Assembly (NCBI GenBank): GCA_963707655.1 | Contig: OY970172.1 | Coordinates: 352,001-416,000, forward strand | Origin: an uncultured bacterium | Lineage (GTDB): Bacteria > Babelota > Babeliae > Babelales > Vermiphilaceae | Direction: 5' to 3' | Length of the DNA: 64,000 bases | Part shown: positions 8,921 to 27,176 of the stretch, one piece after another | How positions within the stretch are numbered: the first letter of the stretch is position 1 | Layout: each line of letters begins with the position of its first letter | Translations under genes and position numbers: made by a program | The notes under the pieces: generated by a model | Databases searched by the model: none | What the model was told of the DNA's origin: nothing | What the model saw: only the letters and a program-made list of their open reading frames with translations

Positions 8921-9967
8921 ATGAAAAAGACATTATTCGTTATCCTATTGCAGGCTTGGCCCAGCTGCTGGGCTATGGTTGACGTTGAAGACGCTCCATT
9001 CAGTCAGTTGGCTCTGTTTGACCATGGATTTCAACCAGACGCGGCGTTACTAATGGAAGAAGAGGGGCATGAGGACGAACTTGCTCAATGGGCAATGCGG
9101 GAGGCAGTTTCTACACCCGATGCGGCGAACAGCAATGATGCATTACTGCCTACAGAACAAAAGGAGGCAGTCGCCGCTCTTCATGCGGCATCTTTGGTTA
9201 CCGTAAAAAAAGGCATGAAAAAGAGAAAAATAGCGAGGAGCGAGCTCTGGTGTAAGGAATGCAAACATCGGGCAGTAAATCTGTATAACTTCGATCTGCA
9301 CAAGCAAAGCAAGGGCCATTTAGAAAAAACAGGACAACCATTACTCCATTGGTCAGCATACAATTTTACCTGCGCGCCATGTGAATATGGGGCGCTTCGT
9401 GATAAGGACTTGAATGTGCACATGCTAAGCCGTTCTCACCTAATAAAAACAGGACAATCGTTACCAGATTGGCAAGCATATAAATACAGATGTGAAACAT
9501 GTAAATATGGAGCTTGCAAAAAAACAACCTTCGATGTGCACGTGCACAGCAGGAGCCATTTAGAAAAAACAGGACAATCGCTGCCAGATTGGCAAGCATA
9601 TGAATTTACGTGTGCACCATGTGAATATGGAAGCCCGCAAAAAAGTAACTTGAATTTGCACATGCAAAGCAAAGGTCATTTAGAGAAAATAGGGCAATCG
9701 TTATCAGATTGGCAAGCATATGAATTTACTTGCGAACCATGTGAATATGGGGCCGTGCGTAAGGACGATTTGAATGCACACATGCACAGCAGGAGCCATT
9801 TAGAAAAAACAGGACAATCGTTACCAGATTGGTCAGCATACAATTTCACCTGTGCACTATGTGAATATGGAACCCCGTATGAAAATGACTTAGATAGACA
9901 TATGCGCAGTAAGAAGCATGAGAAAGCTTATTTGCAATCAATTGAAGTCCTGACTAGGAAAGAATAA
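8921..9967 (+). CDS. Secreted tandem C2H2 zinc-finger protein, 6 fingers (array gene 3)
   Basis: Same architecture; six fingers. Confidence 0.9.
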   Translation: MKKTLFVILLQAWPSCWAMVDVEDAPFSQLALFDHGFQPDAALLMEEEGHEDELAQWAMREAVSTPDAANSNDALLPTEQKEAVAALHAASLVTVKKGMKKRKIARSELWCKECKHRAVNLYNFDLHKQSKGHLEKTGQPLLHWSAYNFTCAPCEYGALRDKDLNVHMLSRSHLIKTGQSLPDWQAYKYRCETCKYGACKKTTFDVHVHSRSHLEKTGQSLPDWQAYEFTCAPCEYGSPQKSNLNLHMQSKGHLEKIGQSLSDWQAYEFTCEPCEYGAVRKDDLNAHMHSRSHLEKTGQSLPDWSAYNFTCALCEYGTPYENDLDRHMRSKKHEKAYLQSIEVLTRKE

Positions 9968-9993
9968 ATAGTAATTACAAGGAAAATGATAAG

Positions 9994-11151
9994 ATGAAAA
10001 AGATATTACTCGCTATCATAATGCTGACGGCCTCCAGCGGCAGGGCGATGCTTGAAGTTGAAGATGCTCCATTCGGTCAGTTGGCTCTGTTTGACTATGG
10101 ATTTCAATCAGGTACGCCGTTGTCACTGGTTGTAGAAGGGGACGAACTTGCACAATGGGCGATGCGGGAGGGAGCTTCTACACCTGATGCGGCAAACAGC
10201 ATCGATGCATTATTGTCTACAGAACAAAAGAAAGCAGTCGCTGCTCTTCATGCGGCATCTTTGGTTACCGTAAAAAAAGGCATGAAACAGAGAAAAATAG
10301 CGAGAAGTAAGCTGTGGTGCAAGGAATGCAAATATCGGGCAGGAAATCTGAATCACTTTGATGAGCACAAGCGAACCAAGGGCCATTTGGAAAAAACAGG
10401 ACAACCATTACCACATTGGTCAACATATGATTTTTCCTGCGAACCATGTGAATATGGGGTCGTGCGTAAGAAGGATTTGAATATACACATGCGAAGCAAA
10501 GGCCATTTAGAAAAAACGGGACAATCGCTACCAGATTGGGCAGCATACGATTTTACCTGCGCACCATGTGAATATGGAGCTTTGAAAAAAGCAACTTTGA
10601 ATTTGCACAAGCGAACCAAGGGCCATTTAGAAAAAACAGGACAATCGCTACCAGATTGGTCAACATATGATTTTTCCTGCGAACCATGTGAATACGGAAC
10701 CATGAAAAAAACAACCTTGAATGACCACATGCAAAGCAAGAGCCATTTAGAAAAAGTAGGACAATCGTTATCAGATTGGCAAGCATACGATTTCACCTGT
10801 GCACTATGTAAATATGGCACCACGCAAAAAGTAAACTTGAATGCACACATGCAAAGCAAGGGCCATTTAGAGAAAGCAGGGCAATCGTTGGCGTGGGATG
10901 CATATCAATATACATGCGCACCATGTGAATATGGAACCCCGCAAAAAAGATGCTTGAATGCACACATGCTCAGCAAGGATCATTTAGAAAAAACAGGACA
11001 ATCATTGCCAGATTGGCAAGCATACAATTTCACCTGTGCACTATGTAAATATGGAACTCCGCATAAAAGGAACTTAGATAGACATATGCGCAGTAAGAAG
11101 CATGAGAAAGCTTATTTGAAATCAATTGAAGTTCCGGCTAGGAAAGAATAG
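9994..11151 (+). CDS. Secreted tandem C2H2 zinc-finger protein, 7 fingers (array gene 4)
   Basis: Same architecture; seven fingers. Confidence 0.9.
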   Translation: MKKILLAIIMLTASSGRAMLEVEDAPFGQLALFDYGFQSGTPLSLVVEGDELAQWAMREGASTPDAANSIDALLSTEQKKAVAALHAASLVTVKKGMKQRKIARSKLWCKECKYRAGNLNHFDEHKRTKGHLEKTGQPLPHWSTYDFSCEPCEYGVVRKKDLNIHMRSKGHLEKTGQSLPDWAAYDFTCAPCEYGALKKATLNLHKRTKGHLEKTGQSLPDWSTYDFSCEPCEYGTMKKTTLNDHMQSKSHLEKVGQSLSDWQAYDFTCALCKYGTTQKVNLNAHMQSKGHLEKAGQSLAWDAYQYTCAPCEYGTPQKRCLNAHMLSKDHLEKTGQSLPDWQAYNFTCALCKYGTPHKRNLDRHMRSKKHEKAYLKSIEVPARKE

Positions 11152-11188
11152 CTAAGGCAGAAATAGTAATCGCAAGGAAAATAACAAG

Positions 11189-11986
11189 ATGAAAAAGACA
11201 TTATTCGTCATCCTAGTGCTGGCTTGCCCCAGCTGCTGGGCGATGGTTGAAGTTGAAGATGCTCCATTCGGTCAGTTGGATTTGTTTGACTATGGATTTC
11301 AACCGGGCGCGGCGTTGCTGATGGAAGAAGAGGGGAATGGGGACGAACTTGCGCAATGGGCGATGCGGGAGGCAGTTTCAGCACCCGATGCGGTGAACAG
11401 CAATAATGCATTACTGTCTACAGAACAAAAGAAGGCAATCGCTGCTCTTCATGCGGCATCTTTGGTTACCGTAAAAAAAGGCATGAAAAAGAGAAAAATA
11501 GCGAGAAGTAAGCTGTGGTGCAAGGAATGCAAATGTCGGGTAATAAATCTGAAGAACTTTGATTTGCACAAGCAAAGCAAGGGCCATTTAGAAAAAACAG
11601 GACAGCCGTTACCACATTGGTCAGCATATGAGTTTACTTGCGCACCGTGTGAATACGGGGCTTTTCTTAAGCAATCTTTGAATGCACATATGCGAAGCCG
11701 TTCCCACCTAATAAAAACAGGGCAATTGTTACCAGTTTGGCAAGCATATAAATACAGATGTGAAATATGTAAATATGGAACTCCGCATAAAGGAAACTTG
11801 AATACACACATGCAAAGCAAGGGCCATTTAGAGAAAACAGGGCAATCGTTGGTGTGGGATGCACATAGATACAGATGTGAAATATGTGAACGTGGCTTCT
11901 TGGAAAAAGGGCATTTTGATAGGCACATGCGCACTAAGAAGCATGAGAAATCAGTAACTAAAAAAACAATCGTGAGGAAAAAATAA
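11189..11986 (+). CDS. Secreted tandem C2H2 zinc-finger protein, 4 fingers (array gene 5)
   Basis: Same architecture; four fingers. Confidence 0.9.
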   Translation: MKKTLFVILVLACPSCWAMVEVEDAPFGQLDLFDYGFQPGAALLMEEEGNGDELAQWAMREAVSAPDAVNSNNALLSTEQKKAIAALHAASLVTVKKGMKKRKIARSKLWCKECKCRVINLKNFDLHKQSKGHLEKTGQPLPHWSAYEFTCAPCEYGAFLKQSLNAHMRSRSHLIKTGQLLPVWQAYKYRCEICKYGTPHKGNLNTHMQSKGHLEKTGQSLVWDAHRYRCEICERGFLEKGHFDRHMRTKKHEKSVTKKTIVRKK

Positions 11987-11987
11987 G

Positions 11988-12929
11988 ATGAAAAAGATAT
12001 TACTCGTTATCCTGTTGCTGGCTTGCCCCAGATGCTGGGCGATGGGCGAAGAAGCCTCATACTACGATCAGTTGGCCCTGTTTGACCATAGATCTCAACG
12101 AGATGTTCCCTTTTTATCAATGGAACAATGTGATGTGGACGGAATCGCGCCATGGATTATTGATGAGGAAAATCCGTTTAGCCAGTGGAATCCATCTGAC
12201 TATGAATTGCGACTAGGCACGCCATTATTGACACCGAGGCAAGAAGATGATGGGTGTGAGCTTGAGTCTTTGGCAATGCAGGGCAATGTTGTGGATCCTC
12301 ATGAGGAGCTGGACATCGGTGCATCATTGTCTACAAAACAAAAGAAAGCAGTCGCCGCTCTTCATGAGTCATCTTTGATTACCGTAAAAAAAGGTATGAA
12401 AGAGAGAAGAATAGCTAGGGGTAAGTTGTGGTGCAAGGAATGCGGATATAATGTCTGGCATAAAGGAAACTTGAATGCACACATGAAAGGCAAAGTTCAT
12501 CTAAGAAGAACAGAACAATCGTTACTAGATTGGCAAGAGCATAAACACAGATGTGCACCATGCAAATATGGTGACTGGCATAAAGGACACTTGAATGCAC
12601 ACATGAAAAGCAAAGCGCATCTAAGAAAAATAGAACAATTGTTGTCATCGGTATCGGGGCAATATCAATGTCCACCATGTGGATATGACACCCCTTTGAA
12701 GCGTAGCTGGAATGCGCACGAGCGTAGTAGGGACCATTTAGAAAAAACAGGACAGTTGTTAAAAGATTGGCGCTCATATGAATATAAATGTAAAACATGT
12801 AAACATGGCATGGCTTCCAGGCTTCAATGGGATACACACGTGCGAAGCAAGCAACATGTGCAAACAAGTAAACTGCTTATTGAAAATCAACGGAAAAGCG
12901 CCAGAGTAAAAGAAATAGCTAAAGCTTGA
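11988..12929 (+). CDS. Secreted tandem C2H2 zinc-finger protein, 4 fingers, divergent with longer acidic N-region (array gene 6)
   Basis: Signal peptide ...PRCWA-M; long D/E/W-rich N-region; four fingers. Confidence 0.88.
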   Translation: MKKILLVILLLACPRCWAMGEEASYYDQLALFDHRSQRDVPFLSMEQCDVDGIAPWIIDEENPFSQWNPSDYELRLGTPLLTPRQEDDGCELESLAMQGNVVDPHEELDIGASLSTKQKKAVAALHESSLITVKKGMKERRIARGKLWCKECGYNVWHKGNLNAHMKGKVHLRRTEQSLLDWQEHKHRCAPCKYGDWHKGHLNAHMKSKAHLRKIEQLLSSVSGQYQCPPCGYDTPLKRSWNAHERSRDHLEKTGQLLKDWRSYEYKCKTCKHGMASRLQWDTHVRSKQHVQTSKLLIENQRKSARVKEIAKA

Positions 12930-21210: not shown

Positions 21211-21380
21211 TGAGTGATAAACAAACACTTTTTTAAAAATGAAAGTAATGTCTTGCTTTTGCTCCGGTGCTTTATTTACCTTGTAGGCATGAAGGGTCAC
21301 GGGGAAGGGACGTCTTAATGCCAGGTCTCATCATTATGGTGATGGGGCCAACCGCGCTATTAAAGGAAGGGAATGTGCTC

Positions 21381-21851
21381 ATGACAAAATTGGGCTTCAC
21401 CTATCCATCGTTTACTAGAAGCAATTTTATCTATATTCATGATCAAAGAATCAGTTCTCATGAAGAAATCATTGCGCTGCATGATATATTGCTTACTCCC
21501 GGTTTTCATTGTTTAAAAGCTAAGAATATGGCATCGGGCAGAGTTGTTGTTGATGTTTTTCTTATGTCATTAAATTGTTTTCACACTATCGGTTGCTTAA
21601 CTATGGAAAAACATCAGTTACCCTGCAATATACAAAATATATATCAACAGTTAGAGCAGGGGGACTATCTATCTCAAGGGGCGGATGGGATAGAGAATTT
21701 TCTTGTTGATGCTTTTTACTGCGATTTTCTTTTCATTGAAATGCAGCCCATGCTCATGAGTAGCCGTTGGTTCCCCGTACTACAACAAAAAATGATTGAT
21801 TTAAAACTCGATCAGGCAATTCCTATTATTTATCTGATATATGAATATTAA
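21381..21851 (+). CDS. Hypothetical protein
   Basis: ORF from ATG 21381, preceded by AAGGAAGGG RBS. Confidence 0.65.
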   Translation: MTKLGFTYPSFTRSNFIYIHDQRISSHEEIIALHDILLTPGFHCLKAKNMASGRVVVDVFLMSLNCFHTIGCLTMEKHQLPCNIQNIYQQLEQGDYLSQGADGIENFLVDAFYCDFLFIEMQPMLMSSRWFPVLQQKMIDLKLDQAIPIIYLIYEY

Positions 21852-22633
21852 TCTTTCCATTCGTCAGGCGTTTCTTCTGCCTCTTCTTCTAATGATCCGC
21901 CTTTATCTTTAATAATTTGCTTGATCAGATTTTCTTTATCTGTTAATTGGTCAATTTTTTCTTGATCAACAGAACCAAACATTACTTTTGTTCCCTCAGT
22001 GACCAAAGCAGCACTATTCTTTTTATATTCTGCTTTCAGTTGATCAACCGTCATAGTTCTTAATGAGATCAAAAGCTCAATATGCTCTTTTTGTGTGACC
22101 AGAGAGCGTTTTTTCAACTGTGTTTTACTGTTTTCGATTTGTTGCTTAACGTTTGTCAATTCTGCCTTTAACTGTTCTATGTTCATAGAATCAAAACGTC
22201 GTAAAACTTCTCGGGCAACTTCAGGTTTTTTCAAAGGAGCACCTTTTCTTATTCCCTCTAAGAATTCATCACGATCACCGGTAGGTTCTTTCGTCTGCGG
22301 AGAGGTTTTTGGCTCTTCTGCCGGCAGTTGTTCTTCTTTCGGCTTTTCTACGGGAGGAGCTTTTTGCGCCGGTGGAGGAGGTGGCGGAGTAGGGACGTTT
22401 GGTTCAACGACGGGCAATTTTTCTTTCTTCTGTGCTTCTTTTAATGATTTAACCGCATCATATTGTTTTGACAGTACTGCTATATTTTTCTCTATATCGG
22501 CAATCTGTTTTTCAGTTTTTTCTTCAAACAATCGTATGTCTTGATCCAAGTTTTTGATTTCTTCAGACACGGTGGCAACAAGAACAGAGGAATGAAAGAA
22601 GAAACTGAACAGGAGAATAGAAATGCGCTTCAT
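21848..22633 (-). CDS. Secreted proline-rich WH2-motif protein with acidic Trp C-terminus (WASP/RickA-like candidate)
   Basis: Signal MKRISILLFSFFFHSSVLVA; coiled coil; PTPPPPPPA; GDRDEFLEGIRKGAPLKKP; ends EEEAEETPDEWKD. Confidence 0.8.
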   Translation of the reverse strand: MKRISILLFSFFFHSSVLVATVSEEIKNLDQDIRLFEEKTEKQIADIEKNIAVLSKQYDAVKSLKEAQKKEKLPVVEPNVPTPPPPPPAQKAPPVEKPKEEQLPAEEPKTSPQTKEPTGDRDEFLEGIRKGAPLKKPEVAREVLRRFDSMNIEQLKAELTNVKQQIENSKTQLKKRSLVTQKEHIELLISLRTMTVDQLKAEYKKNSAALVTEGTKVMFGSVDQEKIDQLTDKENLIKQIIKDKGGSLEEEAEETPDEWKD

Positions 22634-22673
22634 ACATTGCCTTTCTAAATCAGAGCCGATAAGAGCTATTATG

Positions 22674-23762
22674 TTAAAAGAGACTGCTGCTGCACAATAA
22701 CAAATCTCCAATAAACAAGGGAGAAAAACTATGTTTCTTACCGACATACTCTTTTTTTATTTCATATGTCTTTACATTATAACTCAAGATAACAAAAAGG
22801 TTTTCATCATAGTCAACAAAATAAATTTTCCCCTCATGATAGCGTGGCAATAATGGGGCCAAAGACTCAGTCAGCCGCTCTGTTGTATCTCCCGCCACAA
22901 AACAATACGGAATTTTAAAAGAAAATGCTTTTTCATAGCGCCACACCTCTGCTCTCTTTTCAATATAATAAGCATCAAACATGCACGCTGTAGCGTCATA
23001 ATTTATCACAAATCCAGAATTCTCCGATGTCATTGATAATGATACCGGAGAATGAATTTCATCAAAACCCAATAAGAGAGATTGTTGCTGCAATGTGCCC
23101 TGTGCTCTTGATTCATTTTTTTTACCTAACAAGCGTGCTACTCTCTCATCAAAAGTGTCTAGCGCATTAAAATTATTCTCTTCAGAAAGCGGTATAGATG
23201 GATATGTGCTGTGCATTAACACACAACCACTTTCATTATTATTGTGTTTAATATAATAAAGAGAATCAGTAATTTTTTGTGGATATATTAAATCATAATG
23301 CTCATCCTGCACCACAGCCTCAAGCTCGCCGGTAATAGTAAGATGAAAAATCGCATAATGCCCATATTGTTTAGCGCATACATACAGTGAGTTTCTATCT
23401 ATCCATGAAAATGAAAGAATATCATAAATAGGAGAATCTATATCTATACTCATTACCGAGCGCTTATCAAAGAACTTTACCCGTATTCTGCCCTGATCCA
23501 AAAAACTAATTCCTTCTTGATTTGGTACCAATGTCAAAAGCGTGGGATTAAGATGACTGGGCAGCCCTTTAAAAAAATTATTATTGTGTACATCCCATAC
23601 CCATACTTCAAGACGTTTATCAATCTTTTGATGCACCAAATAGACCATGGGCGCATCGGGCTTGCCTATCCATAGACAAGGATACAGATAAGGACCATCA
23701 AAACTGAAACAGGAAGAAGACGACGACAATAAAAGCATGCAAAACAGAAAAAAGAGCTTCAT
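22674..23762 (-). CDS. Secreted hypothetical protein, possibly beta-propeller (TolB-like)
   Basis: Signal peptide; repeated beta-strand patterns (FSWIDRNSLYV, SLYYI, KIYFVD, FSPLF). Confidence 0.7.
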   Translation of the reverse strand: MKLFFLFCMLLLSSSSSCFSFDGPYLYPCLWIGKPDAPMVYLVHQKIDKRLEVWVWDVHNNNFFKGLPSHLNPTLLTLVPNQEGISFLDQGRIRVKFFDKRSVMSIDIDSPIYDILSFSWIDRNSLYVCAKQYGHYAIFHLTITGELEAVVQDEHYDLIYPQKITDSLYYIKHNNNESGCVLMHSTYPSIPLSEENNFNALDTFDERVARLLGKKNESRAQGTLQQQSLLLGFDEIHSPVSLSMTSENSGFVINYDATACMFDAYYIEKRAEVWRYEKAFSFKIPYCFVAGDTTERLTESLAPLLPRYHEGKIYFVDYDENLFVILSYNVKTYEIKKEYVGKKHSFSPLFIGDLLLCSSSLF

Positions 23763-26555: not shown

Positions 26556-27176
26556 ATGAAAATCATTCTGAGACATGCATTTACTTTGCTTGTTGTGGTC
26601 TTTCATTGTGCGCAATCAGCTGAGCAAAAAGAAAAACAAACTATGTTCAGTGCTGTTGCAACGGGAGATCTTCCTGCCGTAAAAGTATTGATAGAACGGG
26701 GAATTGATCTCAATCAACCAATCCTTGAAGGGGCAACTGCATTAATGTTTGCCGTGATGAATAATCATCTTGAAACAGCACAGCTACTCATAGCGAATGG
26801 TGCAAATGTCAATGTGCAAAACGATGCTGGATCTACCGCATTGATGATGGCCACCGCGAGAGCCAATTTTGACATAACGCAGTTGCTTGTAAAGAATGGC
26901 GCAAATCTCGATTTACAAGATGAGCGAGGATGGACCGCATTAATGATAGCCGTATACAATGAAGAATTTAAACTAGCGCAGCTACTCGTAAAGAACGGCG
27001 CAAATAGACGCCTCAAAAATAAGGATGGCGATACAGCACTTATTATAGCGATAAAGAATCGTAATGACCCAGCGTACATTGCTATGTTGGGATCTAAAGA
27101 TGAAATATCAGAGTATGAACAAGCGAGAAACAATGGCACTATTCCCGCATTGATCAATACTCTCAGAAATAGATAA
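26556..27176 (+). CDS. Secreted ankyrin-repeat protein
   Basis: Signal peptide plus about 4-5 GxTAL...LL..GA.vN repeats. Confidence 0.92.
   Translation: MKIILRHAFTLLVVVFHCAQSAEQKEKQTMFSAVATGDLPAVKVLIERGIDLNQPILEGATALMFAVMNNHLETAQLLIANGANVNVQNDAGSTALMMATARANFDITQLLVKNGANLDLQDERGWTALMIAVYNEEFKLAQLLVKNGANRRLKNKDGDTALIIAIKNRNDPAYIAMLGSKDEISEYEQARNNGTIPALINTLRNR

Follow-up and report, generated by a model that had tools for sequence, protein, structure and literature searches.

The window, that is the whole stretch of 64,000 nucleotides that was analyzed, belongs to a 1.09-Mb Dependentiae (TM6) genome, which encodes the target gene at 21848..22633 on the minus strand. An earlier note on this DNA had placed a gene at 21848-22633, and these coordinates are correct. 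The minus strand there reads as an open frame of 261 amino acids followed by a stop, and the translation of the plus strand is riddled with stops. The same note had guessed a host-associated lifestyle, which agrees with the organism being an intracellular parasite of protists. The features of the locus, with residues numbered in the target protein, are as follows.

22674..23762, minus strand: upstream gene for a 362-aa signal-peptide protein of unassigned function, 40 bp from the target gene
21848..22633, minus strand: target gene (P0001), 261 aa and a stop, with ATG 22633 favored as the start
22571..22633, minus strand: signal-peptide-like N-terminus of the Sec type, residues 1-21 (MKR, a 17-residue hydrophobic run, VLVA/T(V))
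22421..22570, minus strand: long amphipathic helix, residues 22-71, a possible coiled coil or oligomerization region as modeled
22280..22420, minus strand: disordered Pro/Glu/Lys-rich linker, residues 72-118 (AlphaFold2 pLDDT below 50 at residues 72-119)
22367-22393, minus strand: PTPPPPPPA, residues 81-89, inside the disordered linker
22226..22285, minus strand: WH2-like motif, residues 117-136, a short helix EFLEGIRKG and then LKKP
21905..22225, minus strand: folded all-helical domain, residues 137-243, five helices (AlphaFold2 pLDDT 83-95)
22184-22219, minus strand: the element VAREVLRRFDSM, residues 139-150, called "C" in the earlier note; helix 1 of the folded domain
21890..21934, minus strand: last helix ENLIKQIIKDKGGSL, residues 234-248, directly 5' of the acidic tail and conserved in P0002 and P0003
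21851..21895, minus strand: disordered acidic tail resembling an A motif, residues 247-261, ending in EEEAEETPDEWKD before the stop (AlphaFold2 pLDDT below 50)

The start at ATG 22633 is favored for two reasons. First, the longer frame of 299 aa from ATG 22747, the less favored start, would run 74 nt into the upstream gene. Secondly, the homologue P0003, described below, has one N-terminal hydrophobic segment. The upstream 362-aa protein gave no Pfam match. Promoter-like sites were located only upstream of its gene and a terminator-like hairpin comes after recF; the upstream gene and the target are possibly co-transcribed.

The N-terminus of the target shows the hydrophobic signal-like segment that had been proposed for it, as called by a crude hydropathy rule that about 45% of background ORFs (419 of 937) also pass. 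P0003 keeps this segment, with an A-T-A cleavage-like site. The helical stretch noticed earlier behind the signal peptide corresponds to a long helix at residues 2-71 in the AlphaFold2 model, with pLDDT values of 71-85 across residues 21-70. In the linker that follows, PTPPPPPPA is present as described. Its PPPPPP is identical in the alignment of the target with P0003, and the target is the only one of the genome's 1616 stop-to-stop ORFs of at least 100 aa with a run of five or more prolines.

The Pfam WH2 profile (PF02205) matched residues 117-136, which overlap the element GDRDEFLEGIRKGAPLKKP (residues 119-137) that the earlier note had recognized as a WH2 motif. The canonical I..G..LKK layout is present, as F-L-E-G-I-R-K-G-A-P-L-K-K. 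The match to the target scored 19.2 bits (E=9.6e-4), and 21.7 bits (E=2.9e-4) in a per-genome search, both below the Pfam cut-off (GA 23.1); the aligned WH2 of P0003 scored 27.1 bits (E=3e-6), above it. At E≤0.1 the target was the sole PF02205 match in its genome (1616 ORFs of at least 100 aa). A regular-expression search gave six matches in 11,600 ORFs, and of these only the match in the target ends in LKK. AlphaFold2 places the WH2 helix at residues 119-129 with LKKP extended after it. In addition, the WH2 of the target aligns with that of WAVE1 in 4n78_D.

The acidic tail was the third element of interest. The ending EEEAEETPDEWKD is present as had been reported, acidic and with a Trp. W259 lies two residues from the C-terminus, and the residue next to it is a Lys, not an acid. 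No other ORF of the genome (1 of 1616) has a Trp in its last five residues together with at least six D/E in its last 13. Residues E249-E251, E253-P256, E258, W259 and D261 are unchanged in P0003, and no other linear stretch is as strictly conserved between the target and P0003 as this tail. The likeness to an A motif, an acidic run with a near-terminal Trp, lies at the level of pattern, since composition correction leaves the tail with no significant profile score. A kinesin-light-chain "W-acidic" reading of this ending is also conceivable.

P0003 is the single full-length homologue of the target, with 42% identity. An exhaustive HMMER search gave one relative, the 59-aa fragment P0002, and the cluster of P0002 gave P0003. 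A search of 5.8 billion proteins, the genomes of 61 relatives and the A2 profile search each returned the target alone, and there was no relative among the 590 pattern matches from a scan of metagenome contigs with A1. P0003 shares the signal peptide, PPPPPP, L-E-x-I-R-K-G-x-P-L-K-K-P and E-E-T-P-x-E-W-x-D. Conservation of the motifs in homologues had been named in advance as a check, and the poly-proline track, the WH2 and the acidic-Trp tail are all kept; this evidence is thin because the family has two members. P0003 also carries an additional upstream W-C-acidic-like module, which is weak (domain i-E 0.5).

The region between the WH2 and the tail is where the target departs from the layout that the earlier note had drawn. 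Instead of the coiled coil of about 100 aa suggested between a C and an A motif, AlphaFold2 gives a compact multi-helix domain of about 105 aa, in a model built from an alignment of two sequences. This domain is the best-conserved part of the family (with the P0003 query the match spans residues 134-352 in the numbering of P0003, E=8e-23), and contains an internal repeat, M-x-[IV]-[ED]-Q-L-K-A-E, at residues 150-158 and 194-202. The identification of VAREVLRRFDSM as a WASP central motif does not hold. Its RR is replaced by ES in P0003, and it forms helix 1 of the folded domain. Hhalign of the target against the Dependentiae WCA profile aligned 23 WH2 columns only (E=4.5e-4, probability 33%). 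Against a C-A profile built from 10 Dependentiae tails, the target scored -3.5 bits (5.1 bits without bias correction), and the list of 69 ORFs obtained at E≤100 from 11,600 ORFs did not include it. In a leave-one-out analysis this kind of profile recovered 7 of the 10 canonical tails at E<0.01; two of the 10 accepted tails (L083 and L099) fail the profile as well. With the full W-C-A profile the target was not listed at E≤10 among the 11,600 ORFs. The spacing also differs: 125 aa separate the end of the WH2 match from the C-terminus of the target, as compared to 36-89 aa in nine other tails. Thus, W, C and A do not lie together in a short disordered stretch, as a confidently predicted helical domain intervenes. 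From the loss of RR in P0003, the AlphaFold2 domain, the C-A profile and hhalign, the target is seen to have W, a folded domain and A with no recognizable C. As read from the sequence and the predicted model, its layout is "W ... folded domain ... A" and not "W-C-coiled coil-A." In the HMMER alignments the last helix, ENLIKQIIKDKGGSL, falls beneath the C columns without significance, and this helix is no more than a candidate for a non-canonical C-like element.

The searches gave little by which the folded domain could be assigned to a known fold or family. Foldseek against the PDB with the whole AlphaFold2 model found nothing at E≤0.001, VIA-align wide with the same model found generic helical hairpins and long helices only (best Z 7.5), the ESM Atlas held no usable match for the target, and no NCBIfam family came close to any cut-off. 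A SAP domain (PF02037) was considered and rejected: the target matched at E=0.12 (12.5 bits, cut-off 23.9) over the first 12 profile positions only, and P0003 at E=0.077 (13.1 bits), also under 23.9.

With a family of two members and no function-bearing domain found by Pfam, NCBIfam or fold searches, the target could be a helical protein of the bacterial periplasm or surface, whose proline-rich and acidic low-complexity segments do no more than resemble eukaryotic motifs and which has no role in actin biology. The sub-threshold WH2 of the target would fit this view, as would a signal peptide that indicates Sec export only and that about 45% of ORFs seem to bear by the hydropathy rule. However, three motifs, each of them genome-unique, occur together here in canonical order, they have been kept despite an overall identity of 42%, the WH2 of P0003 exceeds the cut-off, and the WH2 profile is specific, with matches in 0 of 14 control genomes. 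For these reasons a protein without any actin role is considered highly improbable.

The WH2 was next viewed across the phylum. PF02205 matched at E≤0.01 in 32 of 261 Dependentiae genomes, 21 of these above the cut-off. Of the 27 WH2 ORFs with complete 3' ends, 10 end in an acidic-Trp tail, the target counted, and 17 do not; the background for such a tail in the target genome is the 1 in 1616 given above. Signal-peptide-like N-termini were found in 18 of 21 5'-complete WH2 ORFs, compared to 419 of 937 background ORFs. A profile of nine such tails covered W, C and A of N-WASP (6uhc_H) over profile positions 4-70 (E=7e-13) and matched WAVE1 at E=6e-6, which makes WASP mimicry an established theme in Dependentiae. 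A match of the Dependentiae profile to the WH2 of Vibrio VPA1370 (E=0.0033) was also obtained. Judged by their sequences, canonical W-C-A tails on proteins predicted to be secreted recur in this phylum. Dependentiae retain components of Sec and type II secretion, according to PMC4776705, and signal peptides are present on many of the putative effectors of Chromulinavorax, according to PMC6561590. Searches of the literature on Dependentiae, TM6 and Babelota, supplements aside, gave no report of WH2 or WCA proteins.

The individual W-C-A proteins of the phylum (among them L082/L088, L084, L097, L107, L109 and L089) are mostly like the target in having a signal-peptide-like N-terminus, a Pro-rich region, a WH2 and an acidic-Trp end. 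They differ in that their match to N-WASP extends over W, C and A and that 36-58 aa follow the WH2 match, whereas the target matches in W only. They share no homology with the target outside the motifs, as the P0001 and P0003 queries matched the target genome only. Among eukaryotic proteins, the class I nucleation-promoting factors (NPFs) WASP/N-WASP and SCAR/WAVE likewise combine poly-proline, a WH2 and an acidic tail with a Trp two residues from the end, and in the AlphaFold2 model of the target the motifs are likewise presented in disordered segments. Unlike them, the target has no recognizable C helix, has a helical domain of about 105 aa between W and A, and has a signal peptide in place of regulatory N-terminal domains.

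Two groups of bacterial proteins bear on how the WH2 might act. VopL/VopF of Vibrio, RavH of Legionella and TARP of Chlamydia are secreted proteins with actin-binding motifs of the WH2 type, which the target has as well, and they are not known to have an acidic-Trp tail. They rely on tandem WH2s or oligomerization, whereas the target has one WH2. By analogy, the target could work independently of Arp2/3, binding, sequestering or delivering actin monomers, or nucleating filaments through an oligomerizing N-terminal helix, with its tail serving another partner or none. The WH2 is the only part of the target that aligns to any actin-regulator profile, the C-A and W-C-A profiles detected no C helix, and 17 of 27 Dependentiae WH2 ORFs lack the tail. 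The long N-terminal helix, as modeled, could multimerize single WH2s, and RavH is described as a tandem WH2-like nucleator (PMC13481308). Against this, the tail is the strictest-conserved linear stretch between the target and P0003, a similar tail on nine other WH2 ORFs is part of N-WASP-like W-C-A modules, and the target has a single WH2 and an oligomerization that is putative. This alternative is therefore regarded as unlikely.

The second group, RickA of Rickettsia and ActA of Listeria, resembles the target in that an intracellular bacterium carries WH2 and acidic motifs for recruiting host actin assembly. The Sec signal of the target looks cleavable and no anchor is known for it, while RickA and ActA have C motifs and surface anchoring. 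RickA is stated to activate Arp2/3 (bioRxiv 10.1101/2025.08.14.669974), and ActA and BimA are said to use WH2 domains (PMC12904589). No homology of the target to RickA or ActA was detected, and neither surfaced in any sequence search.

A decoy or inhibitor might also be expected to look like the target, in which a short acidic Trp tail comes straight after a folded domain and a canonical C is absent. Arpin is an A-only ligand of Arp2/3. A tail of this kind in the target would occupy Arp2/3 without an activating C helix and the WH2 would capture actin monomers, for example blunting phagosome or actin-dependent defenses. In PMC12904589, A motifs are described as common to activators and inhibitors of Arp2/3. 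According to that paper, Legionella SidG requires its acidic A domain to bind Arp3, this domain suffices for the binding, and the Trp in it is essential for the toxicity of SidG in yeast. The SidG A domain resembles the target tail: it is acidic, has a critical Trp and engages Arp2/3 outside a W-C-A unit. SidG itself, a large effector secreted by a type IV system, has a Cys-His-Asp triad and control of Rac1, whereas the target, by its sequence, would be a Sec-exported protein with a WH2 and poly-proline. An upstream poly-proline track with a WH2 is a hallmark of assembly-promoting factors, the relatives in the phylum have complete W-C-A modules, and P0003 has its weak extra W-C-acidic-like module (domain i-E 0.5), all of which speak against a decoy and make this explanation very unlikely.

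The reading we prefer, with a probability of roughly one half, is that the target is a Sec-exported effector directed against the host protist's actin cytoskeleton, either a WASP- or RickA-like NPF or a tether between Arp2/3 and actin. It rests on three genome-unique features, poly-proline, WH2 and acidic-Trp tail, found in one ORF and in W-A order, and the AlphaFold2 layout, in which the proline arm and the acidic tail are disordered and the WH2 forms a short helix, fits the presentation of linear motifs. Points that weigh against it are the sub-threshold WH2 of the target, the missing C helix, the long, partly folded interval behind the WH2, the Lys after W259, the small family and the lack of the gene in the same-genus relative L002. 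The earlier note had proposed an Arp2/3-activating or actin-binding effector. The part of this proposal that stands is the succession of poly-proline, WH2 and acidic-Trp tail in WASP order, kept in P0003, and the part that does not is the C motif. As one canonical piece is missing, the target is best described as a probable but atypical actin manipulator. That it activates Arp2/3 is a more tentative claim, which we hold to be possible but somewhat doubtful.

Under the preferred reading of a host-actin effector, the signal peptide would be cleaved and the protein exported, presumably beyond the periplasm. The disordered arm would display a poly-proline track of the classic type for docking profilin, SH3 or EVH1 domains, and the single WH2 on this arm would bind one actin monomer. 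At the C-terminus, the acidic tail and the conserved Trp in it may dock the Arp2/3 complex in the manner of an A motif. Actin monomers and Arp2/3 would in this way be united at the bacterium or its vacuole, or close by, and the folded domain of about 105 aa may position, regulate or localize the tail. A further, rather unlikely extension is that the target and P0003 represent a new NPF architecture, in which the last helix replaces C or the domain gates the tail as a built-in switch for regulation or localization, and that the phylum Dependentiae uses Sec-dependent export of modular WASP mimics to remodel protist actin, with no need of type III, IV or VI injection. If so, this repertoire of host-actin effectors would be a previously undescribed one.

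One of the main routes to understanding Arp2/3 has been the mimicry of the WASP family by bacteria and viruses, for example by RickA and ActA. The present results extend this strategy to a candidate phylum made up of obligate parasites of protists, the effectors of which have hardly been characterized. The theme there is recurrent and modular, with many complete N-WASP-like W-C-A tails and putative Sec signal peptides on almost all of the WH2 proteins. These signal peptides pose a question of delivery, namely the route by which such proteins reach host actin. The target, with W and A, no canonical C and an inserted folded domain, would be a test case for the minimal needs of Arp2/3 engagement and activation.

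Several minor observations concern the locus itself. In the same-genus relative L002, the 362-aa gene is kept and the target is missing at the syntenic site, so the target is dispensable in that relative. The GC content of the target gene is 38.5%, compared to 41.3% for the genome, and does not indicate a recent foreign origin. Rfam gave no match within the window. Lastly, seven contigs of 151-272 nt from four peat or soil metagenome runs cover parts of 22098-22640 only and are identical to the window, with no variants.

The target, P0001, is a protein of 261 aa on the minus strand at window positions 21848-22633 (ATG at 22633). No open frame exists on the plus strand of this interval, where translation gives stops throughout. 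The longest frame is 299 aa, from an ATG at 22747, and overlaps the upstream gene by 74 nt. The ATG at 22633 was taken as the start because P0003, the only full-length homologue, has one hydrophobic segment at its N-terminus. Every motif on which an earlier note had based a likeness to WASP was found in the translation:

Residues 1-21: signal-like N-terminus
Residues 81-89: PTPPPPPPA
Residues 119-137: GDRDEFLEGIRKGAPLKKP, the WH2 stretch
Residues 139-150: VAREVLRRFDSM, named as the central (C) motif in the earlier note
C-terminal end: EEEAEETPDEWKD

The Pfam WH2 model identified residues 117-136 (E=9.6e-4, 19.2 bits), and in a six-frame scan the target (21.7 bits, E=2.9e-4) was the sole match at E<=0.1 in its genome. 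Both scores are under the Pfam cut-off of 23.1. Against a background of 1616 stop-to-stop ORFs of at least 100 aa from the same genome, the target alone (1/1616) has five or more consecutive prolines, and it alone (1/1616) combines Trp in the last five residues with six or more D/E among the 13 C-terminal residues. Chance does not explain three genome-unique features that share one ORF and follow the order of WASP. The GC content of the gene (38.5%) is close to that of the genome (41.3%).

Searches with the target sequence (a set of 5.8 billion proteins, the genomes of 61 relatives, and a profile) returned only the target itself and P0002, a homologous fragment of 59 aa (E=2e-7) with 52% identity across the C-terminus. 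P0003 (352 aa) was found in the 90% cluster of P0002 and is 42% identical to P0001. The two share the signal segment, PPPPPP, most of the helical region, the WH2 core (L-E-x-I-R-K-G-x-P-L-K-K-P) and the tail (E-E-E-x-E-E-T-P-x-E-W-x-D), and the WH2 of P0003 is above the Pfam cut-off (27.1 bits, E=3e-6). These motifs are conserved in one full-length homologue, P0003; a lack of such conservation would, by the earlier note, have refuted its reading. With P0003 as query, 261 Dependentiae genomes gave no match outside the genome of the window. Short metagenome contigs identical to parts of the target gene came from at least four runs in four studies, labelled peat and soil; they held no sequence variants, and the listed runs containing the gene sequence included no RNA run.

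WH2 motifs were also identified in other Dependentiae. The Pfam model matched 9 of 80 same-family genomes at E<=0.1 (4 over the cut-off), 32 of 261 genomes across the phylum at E<=0.01 (21 over the cut-off; 24 of 145 genera), and 0 of 14 control genomes. ORFs were inspected at 30 of the 44 listed WH2 places; three leave their locus at the 3' end, and two of the remaining 27 are short, probably spurious frames. An acidic-Trp tail ends 10 of the 27, the target included. By a crude hydropathy rule, 18 of 21 5'-complete WH2 ORFs of at least 100 aa have signal-peptide-like N-termini, compared with 419 of 937 in the background. Proteins with complete WH2-C-acidic-Trp tails, mostly with a signal peptide and Pro-rich, are encoded at these loci in other Dependentiae genomes:

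L082, 1378-2181, minus strand; database name "hypothetical protein"
L083, 653-889, plus strand
L084, 1492-1719, plus strand
L088
L089, 1492-1689, plus strand
L097, 1354-1584, minus strand
L098, 1492-1755, plus strand; module N-terminal, then a long Glu/Lys-rich region
L099, 1492-1833, plus strand
L107, 1366-1581, minus strand
L109, 1492-1659, plus strand

A3, a profile of WH2, C and acidic (A) motifs (W-C-A) from nine such tails (L099 was excluded for its long spacer), matched N-WASP (6uhc_H; profile positions 4-70, E=7e-13) and WAVE1 (positions 4-68, E=6e-6) across W, C and A, and also matched Spire, WIP and a Vibrio WH2 peptide. These Dependentiae proteins have motifs in common with the target but are otherwise unrelated to it. 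In L086 (G020:C8), a 444-aa frame has a signal peptide, an extended stretch of PKAPAAPPMAPP-type repeats, two WH2-like motifs and an acidic end without Trp; for these reasons it looks formin/VASP-ligand-like rather than W-C-A. L104 (G144:C17) and L108 (G048:C1) encode a separate WH2 family of about 380 aa with two WH2-like motifs each, whose ends (...DEAW* or ...DETW*) are poor in acids and close on Trp.

An AlphaFold2 model of the target (two-sequence alignment, mean pLDDT 70) gave the following:

Residues 2-71: long helix
Residues 72-118: disorder
Residues 119-129: short helix, the WH2 helix
Residues 137-243: helical domain of five helices, confident (pLDDT 83-95)
C-terminal to this domain: disordered tail

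The coiled coil of about 100 aa reported after C in the earlier note is thus modelled as a five-helix domain instead. The C motif of that note is not supported either: VAREVLRRFDSM forms helix 1 of this domain, and P0003 has Glu-Ser in place of its Arg pair. A C-A profile was built from ten Dependentiae tails picked for their acidic-Trp ends. In leave-one-out runs this profile recovered 7 of 10 tails at E<0.01 (L109 at E=0.05; L083 and L099 failed). The target scored -3.5 bits (5.1 bits without composition correction) and was not among the 69 ORFs listed at E<=100 in a search of 11,600 ORFs, nor did A3 list it at E<=10 in a search of 11,600 ORFs. Finally, hhalign to the W-C-A profile aligned only 23 WH2 columns (E=4.5e-4, probability 33%). 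The target therefore has W and an A-like tail, but no canonical C could be recognised. HMMER placed a conserved helix, ENLIKQIIKDKGGSL, the last one ahead of the tail, under the C columns without significance. P0003 has an additional upstream module (residues 106-154; WH2-like, basic helix, acidic, no Trp), absent from the target, with a weak match to W-C-A positions 9-65 (domain i-E 0.5; whole protein E=4.9e-4, Z=11,600).

Fold and ESM Atlas searches for the helical domain were uninformative. An internal repeat, M-x-[IV]-[ED]-Q-L-K-A-E, starts two of its helices (residues 150-158 and 194-202; 22031-22186, minus strand), with weak, sub-threshold SAP-domain matches (E=0.12 in the target, E=0.077 in P0003). 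L002, the locus of a same-genus relative, has a similar M-S-V-E-D-L-K-T-E-L in a small ORF (11685-12083) for a secreted protein.

The genome of the window is a single contig of 1,091,075 bp, and the relatives of its DnaB are Dependentiae/Babeliales/TM6 (72% identity to Vermiphilus pyriformis, 90% to one MAG). Dependentiae live inside protists as obligate parasites. The most likely reading, with a probability of about 0.5, is that the target is exported by Sec and acts on host actin. TM6 genomes are described as having in common components of Sec and type II secretion, and possibly of the type IV pilus (PMC4776705). In Chromulinavorax, putative signal peptides are reported on 44% of CDS, many putative effectors are apparently secreted, and outer-membrane vesicles were observed (PMC6561590). 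The signal-like N-terminus would also suit a non-actin envelope protein, which the WASP-ordered motifs make the least probable of the alternatives.

As an actin effector, the target would bind G-actin through WH2, recruit profilin-actin or SH3/EVH1 partners through its poly-Pro track, and dock Arp2/3 through its acidic-Trp tail. Legionella SidG needs its A domain to bind Arp3, for which this domain also suffices, and its yeast toxicity requires the A-domain Trp; A motifs are common to Arp2/3 activators and inhibitors (PMC12904589). An A-only decoy or inhibitor would fit this tail, has the upstream poly-Pro and WH2 against it, and is improbable. Activation of Arp2/3 is less likely than not, given the lack of C and the inserted folded domain. 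A WH2 protein that binds or nucleates actin independently of Arp2/3 would need no C, would leave the conserved tail to another partner or none, and is unlikely, less so than a decoy. The earlier note was largely right in observation and partly right in interpretation, and the target would be a new, atypical variant of known WASP-mimic effectors. It belongs to a repertoire of WASP-mimic-type proteins in Dependentiae for which no descriptive paper was found; literature searches gave no paper linking WH2 to Dependentiae/TM6/Babelota and nothing relevant on actin or effectors in Dependentiae.

The neighbours include housekeeping genes (L9, DnaB, methyltransferase, RuvC, RecF, DnaN, XerC/D-type recombinase, ProRS), an ankyrin-repeat protein and two conserved hypotheticals. 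The features considered here are:

21267-21851, plus strand: conserved hypothetical without Pfam match, converging on the target with a 4-nt overlap at its stop codon
22674-23762, minus strand: signal-peptide protein of 362 aa without Pfam match, 40 bp upstream of the target
26556-27176, plus strand: ankyrin-repeat protein of 206 aa (Ank_2 E=9e-58), adjoining dnaN
L002 8837-9613, plus strand: outer-membrane-protein-like gene (258 aa, signal peptide) between RuvC and the conserved hypothetical, absent from the window

Co-transcription of the target with the 362-aa gene is possible, since the only promoter-like matches on this strand are upstream of the latter. The 21267-21851 gene probably starts at an internal Met. 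L002 has homologues of the 362-aa protein (10460-11542) and of the 21267-21851 gene (9927-10409, 160 aa). It lacks the target gene, and the flanking genes abut with a 50-bp gap; genes are gained and lost at this locus, a small hotspot. The ankyrin-repeat protein is a candidate for another eukaryote-like effector.
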